The translations under genes and the position numbers were made by a program. A DNA stretch of 64,000 nucleotides from Escherichia coli. Lineage in GTDB: Bacteria > Pseudomonadota > Gammaproteobacteria > Enterobacterales > Enterobacteriaceae. Positions within the stretch are counted from its first letter, which is position 1; each line of letters starts with the position of its first letter. Positions 4,995 through 8,991 of this stretch are shown here, piece by piece. A model generated the notes under the pieces. It made no database searches, was not told the DNA's origin, and saw only the letters and a program-made list of their open reading frames with translations. The DNA is taken from the NCBI RefSeq assembly GCF_048403405.1, contig NZ_CP183129.1, one strand, 5' to 3'.

Positions 4995-7439
4995 TTACAC
5001 CTTTTCAACCTGAACAAGGTTTGTATGTGACGGATTCCCCTTAGCGAGAGGAGACGGACGTTGAGTGGTCAGTACATTGATACAACCGCCCTTATCGACA
5101 CGTTTTGCATCCGGGTCATACCAGGCACCTTCACCCAGTGCGACCACACCCGGCATCATTCGTGGCGTCACTTTCGCCTCAATATGAACCTCACCACGAT
5201 CGTTAAAGATCCTGACTTTATCGCCGTTGTTGATACCGCGTTTTTGCGCATCAAGCGGGTTGATCCACATTTCCTGACGGCAAGCCGCTTTCAGCACATC
5301 AACGTTGCCGTAAGTTGAGTGAACGCGAGATTTATAGTGGAAACCCGTAAGCTGCAGCGGATATTGTTTGTTCAGCGGATCCTGATAACTTTCAAAGCCC
5401 GGCGTATAGATCGGCAGTGGATCGATCACATCGCCTTCTGGCAATTCCCAAGTCGCGGCAATGTCAGCCAGCGCCTGCGAATAAATCTCAATTTTACCCG
5501 ATGGCGTGGTCAGTGGATTTGCCTGAGGATCTTCACGGAAAGCTTTATAAGCAACGTGGTGCCCTTGTGGGTCGCGCTTTTTAAAGATCCCCTGCTTGCG
5601 GAACTCTTCAAACGTTGGCAGTTCAGGAATCGCTTCCCGCGACTGGGCATACAGATGCCGCATCCACTCTTCCTGTGTACGGCCTTCAGTAAACTGTTGC
5701 TCAACGCCAAGACGTTTTGCCAGTTCGCTGGTCATTTCATAGATGGTCTTACATTCAAAGCGCGGTTTAATCACCTGATCGTTGAAAATCACGTAAGACA
5801 TATTCCCGCAGGATGCATCCAGTGCAAAGTCCATCTGTTCGGAAGCGGTGCAGTCAGGCAGCAGGATGTCAGCATATTTCGCTGATGAGGTCATGTGGCA
5901 GTCGATAACCACAATCAGCTCGCACTTCTTATCATCCTGAAGGATTTCATGGGTACGGTTGATTTCAGAATGCTGGTTAATCAGGCAGTTACCGGCATAG
6001 TTCCAGATCATTTTGATCGGCACATCCAGCTTATCTTTCCCGCGCACACCATCACGCAGCGCTGTCATTTCCGGGCCACGTTCAATGGCATCGGTCCACA
6101 TAAACATCGAAATGCTGGTCTGGATCGGGTTTTCGAGGGTCGGCATACGGACAAACGGTAAGCTGTATGAACCTTCACGCGCGCCGCTGTTGCCTCCGTT
6201 AATACCAACGTTACCGGTCAGAATCGCCAGCATCGAGATAGCACGGGTTGCGATTTCACCGTTAGCGTGACGCTGCGGGCCCCATCCCTGGCTGATAAAC
6301 GCCGGTTTGGTACTGCCGATTTCACGAGCCAGTTTGATGATTTTGTCTGCCGGAACACCGGTGATTTGCGAGGCCCATTCCGGCGTTTTAGCCACGCCAT
6401 CTGGCCCTTCACCCAGAATATAAGCTTTATAGTGACCATTTTTCGGCGCACTGGCTGGCAGTGTTTTCTCGTCGTAGCCAACGCAATATTTATCGAGGAA
6501 TGCCTGATCCACCAGGTTTTCGGTGATCATGACATACGCCAGACCGTTAACCAGTGCGGCATCTGTTCCCGGACGAATGGGGATCCACTCATCTTCGCGC
6601 CCGGCTCCGGTGTCGGTATAGCGCGGATCGATGATGATCATGCGAGCATTAGATTTCTGACGCGCCTGTTCAAGATAGTAAGTCACCCCACCGCCACTCA
6701 TTCGCGTTTCGCCAGGGTTATTACCAAACAGCACTACCAGTTTACTGTTTTCGATATCCGACGGGCTGTTACCATCTGCCCAGCCGCCGTAGGTATAGTT
6801 CAAACCTTCCGCAATTTGCGCGGAAGAGTAGTCACCGTAATGGTTCAGATAACCGCCGCAGCAGTTCATCAGGCGAGCGACCAGGGTATTTCCCGGCGGC
6901 CAGGAGCGGGTCATGGTGCCGCCCAGCGTACCGGTACCATAGTTCAGATAGATAGACTCGTTGCCGTACTCTTTGATCAGGCGCTGCATATTGGTCGCGA
7001 TGATGTCGTAGGCTTCTTCCCAGCTAATGCGCTCGAATTTGCCTTCACCGCGCGCCCCGACTCGTTTCATCGGATATTTCAGGCGGTCCGGATTGTAGAC
7101 ACGGCGACGCATGGAACGCCCACGCAGACAGGCGCGCACCTGGTGCAGGCCGTCATAGTTGTCATCGCCGGTATTATCCGTTTCAACATATTTAATTTCA
7201 CCGTCCACAACGTGCATACGTAGCGGGCAGCGACTACCACAGTTAACTGTACAGGCGCTCCAGATAACCTTTTCGTCTGATTTTGTTGGAATGGCGCTAT
7301 CGACAGCGTGCGCAATCCGACTAAAAGGTAATGTTAATGCGCTGCTGGCCATTGCCAGGCCGCCGATCGCTGTCGTTTTTACCAAACCACGGCGACTCAC
7401 CTCAGCAGCCAATACCGCATCAGGGATTTTCGTTTTCAT
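4995..7439 (-). CDS. dmsA: DMSO reductase catalytic molybdopterin subunit DmsA
   Basis: 814 aa; N-terminal twin-arginine signal (SRRGLVK) and a Cys-rich motif near the N-terminus; synteny dmsABC. Confidence 0.95.
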   Translation of the reverse strand: MKTKIPDAVLAAEVSRRGLVKTTAIGGLAMASSALTLPFSRIAHAVDSAIPTKSDEKVIWSACTVNCGSRCPLRMHVVDGEIKYVETDNTGDDNYDGLHQVRACLRGRSMRRRVYNPDRLKYPMKRVGARGEGKFERISWEEAYDIIATNMQRLIKEYGNESIYLNYGTGTLGGTMTRSWPPGNTLVARLMNCCGGYLNHYGDYSSAQIAEGLNYTYGGWADGNSPSDIENSKLVVLFGNNPGETRMSGGGVTYYLEQARQKSNARMIIIDPRYTDTGAGREDEWIPIRPGTDAALVNGLAYVMITENLVDQAFLDKYCVGYDEKTLPASAPKNGHYKAYILGEGPDGVAKTPEWASQITGVPADKIIKLAREIGSTKPAFISQGWGPQRHANGEIATRAISMLAILTGNVGINGGNSGAREGSYSLPFVRMPTLENPIQTSISMFMWTDAIERGPEMTALRDGVRGKDKLDVPIKMIWNYAGNCLINQHSEINRTHEILQDDKKCELIVVIDCHMTSSAKYADILLPDCTASEQMDFALDASCGNMSYVIFNDQVIKPRFECKTIYEMTSELAKRLGVEQQFTEGRTQEEWMRHLYAQSREAIPELPTFEEFRKQGIFKKRDPQGHHVAYKAFREDPQANPLTTPSGKIEIYSQALADIAATWELPEGDVIDPLPIYTPGFESYQDPLNKQYPLQLTGFHYKSRVHSTYGNVDVLKAACRQEMWINPLDAQKRGINNGDKVRIFNDRGEVHIEAKVTPRMMPGVVALGEGAWYDPDAKRVDKGGCINVLTTQRPSPLAKGNPSHTNLVQVEKV

Positions 7440-7609
7440 AATGGCTCACTCAAGCTTGCTCACGATTGATTCCAGTAACAAACCGTATTGTGTAATTATT
7501 TCTATAGCAGGTCGCTATATAGGCTTGTATACATCGAATAATTTGAAAATCAAAGAGATAGGTAGATTTTCACTCGAAAGTAGTATTACGTGTAAGTGAG
7601 GAGTAATTA

Positions 7610-7623
7610 TTGTTCGGTATCAA
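7610..7623 (-). promoter_or_regulatory. Candidate FNR binding site of the dmsA promoter
   Basis: Plus strand ttgttcggtatcaa, i.e. TTGATaccgAACAA on the dmsA strand, matching the TTGAT-N4-ATCAA FNR consensus with one mismatch; dmsABC is a known FNR-activated anaerobic operon. Confidence 0.55.
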
Positions 7624-7631
7624 AGGGAGAC

Positions 7632-7657
7632 AAAAAAAGCGCCCGCAGGCGCTTTTT
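7632..7657 (-). terminator. Rho-independent terminator downstream of serS
   Basis: GC hairpin GCGCCCGCAGGCGC flanked by an A-run and a T-run, so potentially bidirectional; lies just 3' of the serS stop. Confidence 0.6.
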
Positions 7658-7677
7658 AGATTCAGAAAAATTGGGTA

Positions 7678-8991
<1,314 letters not shown>

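Follow-up and report, generated by a model that had tools for sequence, protein, structure and literature searches.

The region examined here, positions 7440-7677 of a 64,000-nucleotide stretch of Escherichia coli DNA (the whole of which is called the window), is the intergenic region between serS and dmsA, both encoded on the minus strand. A 501-bp stretch around it shows 100% identity to many E. coli chromosomes and is present in 5425 of 5426 complete genomes; the annotated gene order in the identical chromosomes is lolA-rarA-serS-dmsA-dmsB-dmsC. Relative to K-12 MG1655, one base differs over the 280 bp compared (the intergenic region and short flanks), at window 7511, which is C here and A in K-12, and a window position p is converted to its NC_000913.3 coordinate as 940,959 + (7439 - p). 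The minus-strand text of the region contains ...gcgctttttttgtctcccTTTGATACCGAACAATAATTACTCC..., and the following features are distinguished along it, in the direction of transcription of dmsA.

7678-7680, minus strand: TAA stop codon of serS (serS ORF 7678-8970).
7530-7664, plus strand: match to Rfam RF02084 'STnc130', antisense to dmsA, 140.1 bits against a gathering score of 55, E 3e-25.
7632-7657, minus strand: serS intrinsic terminator AAAAAGCGCC-UGCG-GGCGCUUUUUUU, with an A-run 5' and a U-run 3', bidirectional in shape.
7610-7623, minus strand: FNR binding site TTGATaccgAACAA, centred at -41.5 of dmsA P1.
7599-7605, minus strand: NarL heptamer TACTCCT, a perfect match to TACYYMT, -30 to -24.
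7582-7587, minus strand: -10 hexamer AATACT of dmsA P1, -12 to -7, with A-11 nearly invariant and T-7 invariant.
7579-7585, minus strand: NarL-like heptamer TACTACT, one mismatch, -10 to -4.
7575, minus strand: putative dmsA P1 start (G), K-12 940,823, placed by the -10 hexamer and the -41.5 geometry; 5' UTR 7575-7440, 136 nt.
7558-7564, minus strand: NarL heptamer TACCTAT, perfect, +12 to +18.
7554-7560, minus strand: NarL-like heptamer TATCTCT, one mismatch, overlapping TACCTAT, +16 to +22.
7548-7560, plus strand: IHF-like core AATCAAAGAGATA, +16 to +28, one mismatch to WATCARNNNNTTR, with an A/T-rich tract beside it.
7513-7536, no strand assigned: predicted ModE operator CGATGTATA-caagcc-TATATAGCG (in full CGATGTATAcaagccTATATAGCG), +40 to +63 of P1, K-12 940,862-940,885.
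7456-7477, minus strand: predicted RyhB pairing site UACUGGAAUCAAUCGUGAGCAA, a 22-nt complement at -38 to -17 from the AUG.
7470-7477, minus strand: upstream part of the RyhB pairing site, UACUGGAA.
7445-7451, minus strand: Shine-Dalgarno-like GAGUGAG, 5 nt before the AUG, containing a second GUGAG copy.
7437-7439, minus strand: dmsA start codon (dmsA ORF 4995-7439; the protein begins MKTKIPDAVLAAEVSRRGL, a twin-arginine signal peptide).

Conservation of these features was assessed in 80 loci, one genome per species, drawn from across the Enterobacteriaceae. With few exceptions, serS is the gene immediately upstream of dmsA and the two are separated by 178-345 bp, and an alignment of 24 genera reveals discrete conserved blocks amid otherwise divergent DNA: the serS terminator, a TTGA-N7-CAA motif, the hexamer nATACT, a ModE-type palindrome, and a block directly before the ATG (TGTGAGCAA-N-CAAAGTGAG). 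Across the 24 genera the terminator takes the form AAAGCGCC-N4-GGCGCTTTTTTT, in which the stem never changes and the loop varies. In the window its hairpin has six G-C/A-U pairs, extendable to ten, a 4-nt loop and seven U residues, and folds with a dG of -16.3 kcal/mol (z -4.1, a value reached by 0 of 200 shuffles). A consensus terminator scan of 7300-7800 returned no terminator, which must be regarded as a false negative, since the serS hairpin folds clearly.

A prior examination of the DNA from its letters and open reading frames (the sequence-only reading) had pointed to a near-perfect pair of FNR half-sites about 170 bp from the dmsA start codon, and had reasoned that the usual -41.5 position would then imply a long, AT-rich 5' leader. 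Each element of that proposal is borne out. The pair, TTGATACCGAACAA at 7623-7610 on the minus strand, departs from TTGAT-N4-ATCAA at a single position (AACAA instead of ATCAA); the A of the ATG is 177.5 bp away from its centre, 7616.5, and 171 bp away from its nearer edge, and the segment 7440-7610 has 34.5% G+C, compared with 51% for the whole window. The TTGA and CAA of the box are invariant across the 24 genera, and the variants found within Escherichia alter the spacer only (accg, acca, atca). TTGA-N7-CAA stands exactly 29.5 bp before the -10 hexamer nATACT in 77 of 81 enterobacterial loci, whereas the distance from the box to the ATG, unlike this fixed spacing, varies from 118 to 185 bp. 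With AATACT at 7587-7582 taken as the -10 element, the FNR box falls at -41.5, the position also given by Myers et al. (2013), transcription would start at 7575, and the leader would be 136 nt long, within the range of 77-144 nt (median 109) seen across genera. The exact +1 base is thus a predicted one, and both it and the footprint limits rest on geometry and a secondary citation.

The count of FNR motifs is by itself no more than expected by chance. At one mismatch or fewer, the 64-kb window holds two matches to the consensus, compared with 2.57 +/- 1.74 expected, and 71 of 100 shuffles reach two. Only about 0.01 such one-mismatch match is expected per 238-bp intergenic region, and support for the dmsA site lies in its position, its conservation and published occupancy data. 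The other match in the window, TTGATGATGTTCAA at 1572-1585 on the plus strand, corresponds to none of the published FNR ChIP peaks and is probably a chance match. A simple consensus promoter scan left P1 uncalled, its only call overlapping the FNR site; class II promoters are typically without a good -35. The possibility of a structured leader RNA or riboswitch was also considered and is unsupported: the 166-nt fold of the leader and early coding sequence has an unremarkable energy (z -1.55), and the sole Rfam match at or above the gathering score is the antisense STnc130.

The ChIP coordinates published by Myers and colleagues follow the older K-12 numbering, 777 lower at the dmsA locus; the offset agrees with the sigma-70 peak that they give for serS, at 938,598, since it would place that peak 53 bp before the serS start. 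In that numbering the centre of the FNR site lies at about 940,004.5 and the predicted start at about 940,046. In Table 1 of Myers et al. (2013; PMC3688515), dmsABC appears with a single FNR site, at -41.5, with sigma-70 occupancy and expression both greater without O2, and with prior evidence for binding and regulation; Table S8 of the same study classes the operon as FNR-activated, and its text describes dmsA as activated by FNR and repressed by NarL, referring to a "class II dmsA" after Lamberg & Kiley 2000. The FNR ChIP peaks reported there are centred at 939,992 and 940,035, the former (Table S5) being recovered by four of four peak callers and by earlier ChIP-chip, with a PWM ln(p) of -10.34. 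The sigma-70 peak at 940,050 (Table S2), whose occupancy rises from 30.77 aerobically to 447.51 anaerobically, maps to about window 7571, some 4 bp from the predicted +1, and Table S12 gives dmsA a value of 0.018 for aerobic versus anaerobic wild-type cultures (PMC3688515). The supplementary files of that study were searched for the dmsA FNR sequence, and it was not found in them. The locus accordingly displays the attributes of a class II FNR-activated sigma-70 promoter, namely an inverted repeat, the -41.5 position, and published FNR occupancy and anaerobic expression. The comparison with published promoter data that the sequence-only reading had called for is favorable, in that position and class agree and the peaks of FNR and of anaerobic-only sigma-70 ChIP-seq fall within a few bp of the positions given here, and the finding that would have told against it, a start mapped close to the ATG and independent of the site, is contradicted by the published sigma-70 and FNR data.

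Two other accounts of the FNR motif deserve consideration against this background. One holds that the motif is fortuitous and that the dmsA promoter lies close to the ATG. Such a view could draw on the chance-level frequency of one-mismatch matches in the window, and on an AT-rich region that offers -10-like hexamers further downstream, such as AATAAT at 7500-7495; the segment carrying these hexamers is, however, missing in most genera, while the half-sites are invariant, the spacing to the -10 is fixed in 77 loci even as the distance to the ATG drifts, and the FNR and anaerobic sigma-70 ChIP peaks fall at the site and near +1, 130-190 bp from the ATG. We regard a chance motif as exceedingly improbable. 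The second account accepts a real FNR site but assigns it another role, either as a class I site (-61.5) for a later start or as a repressor of read-through or of another promoter. The one promoter called by the scan, TTGTCT-16-AATAAT (7633-7606), overlaps the FNR site and could be occluded by it, but it scores 9 of 12 and such calls arise at the rate found in shuffles (1 found, 0.9 expected); moreover, the published assignment is class II at -41.5, a conserved hexamer sits at exactly -12 to -7 for a site so placed, and FNR activates dmsA expression, with no repression. This too can be given virtually no credence, and a class II site at -41.5 remains the reading on which the rest of the control region is interpreted here.

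Additional regulatory sites, for example for ModE or NarL, had also been anticipated in the leader. For NarL this expectation holds: predicted heptamers are present, running from -30 to +22 across the core promoter and the first part of the leader, and none occurs further down the leader. Perfect NarL heptamers number 27 in the window on both strands, corresponding to 0.05 expected per 120 bp, and two are found at dmsA P1. The 7-2-7 inverted pair is absent, all good heptamers at P1 being on one strand; the only opposite-strand heptamer, TAATTAT (one mismatch), overlaps TACTCCT at a spacing other than 2 bp. NarL is said to protect a large region at dmsA (Bearson et al., in the statement quoted in PMC11363960), and a protected region of this kind fits multiple single heptamers. 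In other genera the heptamers shift position yet stay over the core promoter, a placement that fits NarL repression by occlusion. An IHF-like core with at most one mismatch begins at +14 to +16 in 23 of 75 loci, and the title of one abstract cited in the literature states that dmsA regulation "requires both ModE and IHF"; Table S4 of Myers et al. (PMC3688515) contains no IHF ChIP-chip peak at the dmsA locus. Binding of NarL, IHF and ModE to the particular bases named here is predicted from motif matches and conservation.

For ModE, the leader holds a predicted and strongly conserved operator at 7536-7513. The box departs at one position from the pattern CGNTATATA-N6-TATATANCG (CGnTATATA-N6-TATATAnCG), and no second match with three or fewer mismatches occurs in the 64-kb window. 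Of 75 loci, 74 carry it, against 0 matches in 233 kb of coding background, with a cross-genus palindrome consensus of CGTTATATA-N6-TATATAGCG. Its centre lies between +48.5 and +53.5 in 70 loci and at +82.5 in four Citrobacter loci, a shift of 31 bp, or three helical turns, which would keep the box on the same face of the helix. The same displacement is seen relative to the FNR site, from which the ModE-type box of the Citrobacter group (loci L013, L014, L016, L018-L021 and L067) is separated by 123 bp, versus about 92 bp elsewhere. ModE control of dmsA is stated in the literature, in parts of which ModE is reported as necessary for full dmsA expression. An activator site downstream of +1 is unusual; the IHF-like site between P1 and the ModE box, together with the three-turn shift, may fit a bent architecture. 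An initial candidate for the ModE box, CCTATATAgcgacctgCTATAGA (about 7524-7500), was set aside when the alignment placed the conserved palindrome at 7536-7513 and showed the CTATAG segment to be Escherichia-specific. The idea that the ModE box serves as the -10 of a further promoter, in either orientation, was likewise discarded: inspection by eye found no conserved -35 on either strand, the flanking DNA being variable or deleted between genera. Just 3' of the box, window position 7511 carries all four bases among four aligned E. coli strains (the window has C, K-12 has A, strain 83972 has T and P276M has G), in flanking DNA that is almost invariant there over 60 bp; the P276M assembly is of low quality, with serS and dmsA both frameshifted.

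Toward the 3' end of the leader, the predicted RyhB pairing site forms, with the K-12 ryhB sequence UUGCUCACAUUGCUUCCAGUA, a duplex of 20 base pairs interrupted by one mismatch and one bulge. Its core, GUGAGCAA (7456-7463), is the complement of the RyhB core and falls within the conserved block before the ATG. The best duplex between RyhB and the leader, which includes three further pairs downstream, has an energy of -29.5 kcal/mol, compared with -16.3 +/- 3.2 for shuffled leaders (0 of 500 shuffles as strong; z about -4). The core occurs at -22 to -24 in 48 of 79 loci; the long extension is Escherichia-specific, and the RyhB complement of other genera is limited to the 8-9 nt core. RyhB control of dmsA is already published, the exact pairing given here being a prediction. 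Wang et al. 2015 (PMC4666370) report that RyhB represses dmsA translation (Ribo-seq 2.13, P 5e-5; RNA-seq 0.02), a regulation that followed an earlier computational prediction and was validated with a -300 to +24 lacZ fusion, and Beauchene et al. 2015 place dmsABC among the operons lowered by RyhB anaerobically. The arrangement resembles RyhB-sodB type repression, in which the single-stranded core GACAUUGCUCACAUUGCUUCCAGUA of RyhB pairs beside the ribosome-binding site of an iron-sulfur enzyme mRNA, but differs in that the predicted dmsA pairing is unusually long in Escherichia and ends 17 nt before the AUG.

The match to Rfam RF02084 presents the region in quite another light, as a small RNA gene on the strand opposite to dmsA. 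In detail, the model is almost unstructured except for a terminator hairpin, and when reverse-complemented its consensus reads as the FNR box, -10 hexamer, IHF region and one half of the ModE box. In Table S3 of Sittka et al. 2008, STnc130 is a class V (predicted only) candidate with 0 reads in both cDNA libraries; the same study gives the orientation serS ->, STnc130 <-, dmsA ->, and describes its Northern, under limited conditions, as showing "no detectable transcript", while Barquist et al. 2013 refer to STnc130 as a "putative sRNA". The dmsA region thus resembles RF02084 in the sense of a full-length match far above the gathering score, and is distinguished from the family's nominal identity in that the RNA, on the strand opposite to dmsA, has never been detected and the conserved positions are the DNA-binding sites and terminator of other genes. 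RF02084 is probably a conserved promoter and a bidirectionally shaped hairpin mistaken for an sRNA gene, so that the family would consist of promoter and terminator DNA rather than an RNA gene.

The alternative, that 7530-7664 is a genuine antisense sRNA gene with a plus-strand promoter inside the ModE box and an end at the reversed serS hairpin, has some attractive features. The Rfam match is full-length, at 140 bits and E 3e-25; the A-run and U-run of the hairpin could support termination in both directions; and the 5' end of the model, 7530, lies within the ModE box, each half of which looks like a -10 hexamer, the same being true of the modA operator. In this scheme ModE-molybdate would repress STnc130 as it does at modA and relieve interference with dmsA P1, which would account for an "activator" site at +51.5, and a ModE-repressed RNA could have been missed by the sole expression test, whose cultures are not described as molybdate-starved. 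Weighing more heavily, in our estimation, are the status of STnc130 as a prediction, with 0 reads, no Northern transcript and the label "putative"; the coincidence of the conserved columns with the FNR box, -10 hexamer, IHF region and ModE box, such that promoter conservation explains the score; the lack of a conserved plus-strand -35, in DNA that is variable or deleted between genera; and a low aerobic sigma-70 occupancy at the locus (30.8). An antisense gene is therefore considered improbable, and we would attach little likelihood to its corollary, that ModE "activates" dmsA by shutting off convergent STnc130 transcription, without contacting RNA polymerase.

We conclude with high confidence that the region comprises dmsA P1, the oxygen-responsive promoter of the E. 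coli DMSO reductase operon dmsABC, together with its 5' leader, operating according to the class II FNR model. The locus identity, motifs, conservation and spacing documented here, and the FNR and sigma-70 occupancy, anaerobic induction and RyhB repression already in print, can be accommodated in a single sequence of events. Under anaerobiosis, FNR binds TTGATaccgAACAA at -41.5 and recruits sigma-70 RNA polymerase to the weak -10 AATACT. Transcription would begin near window 7575, leaving 136 nt before the ATG, and the serS terminator, about 8 bp upstream of the FNR site, insulates P1. Nitrate-activated NarL represses transcription, and would do so by occupying the heptamers from -30 to +22, over the polymerase footprint; the ModE-molybdate operator and IHF-like site may tune anaerobic expression to molybdenum supply; and RyhB, the iron-starvation sRNA, represses translation, with a predicted pairing near the ribosome-binding site. 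The dmsA promoter is a standard model of class II FNR activation and NarL repression, and its control region is already characterised and adds no new biology. The analysis provides base-level coordinates for the whole control region and a measure of the conservation of each control element over about 75 enterobacterial species, and it illustrates that a real regulatory site and its long leader can be recognised from raw sequence at a first-stage reading.

Comparison with characterised promoters places these features in context. The closest is dmsA P1 of E. coli K-12 itself (Lamberg & Kiley 2000; Bearson et al. 2002; Myers et al. 2013), which represents the same locus, FNR site, geometry and regulators, with no functional difference and the single variant base at 7511, just 3' of the ModE box. 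The narG promoter shares a class II FNR site at -41.5, NarL and IHF inputs, and control of an anaerobic respiratory operon, but there NarL and IHF activate from upstream sites, whereas NarL is a repressor at dmsA, its heptamers lying across the core promoter, and the IHF-like and ModE sites of dmsA are downstream of +1. The K-12 modA operator, CGTTATATTgtcgccTACATAACG, and the dmsA box CGATGTATAcaagccTATATAGCG fit the same palindrome, modA with two mismatches; the box of modA is found 21 bp upstream of the modA ATG and the dmsA box at +40 to +63 of an FNR promoter. ModE acts as a repressor at the modA operator.

The serS-dmsA junction is also a site of mobile element insertion. In about 350 of the 5425 complete E. 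coli genomes, the match to the region breaks in two precisely at the terminator hairpin, the two pieces sharing 22 bp (7634-7655), and in strain F11 (locus L082; NZ_CP184143.1, 1-6000) a P2-like prophage lies between serS and dmsA. The proteins encoded by this prophage include Cox, a tyrosine integrase and one with an HTH domain, and its identity to phages of the P88 type is about 80%. The split matches at the hairpin and the F11 prophage together indicate that the serS terminator serves as a phage attachment site. Seven of the matches to the serS-dmsA region in the E. coli genome search fall on records classed as plasmids. F11 retains the dmsA promoter, 81 bp beyond the end of the integrase gene, and the FNR promoter remains intact beside the prophage attachment site.
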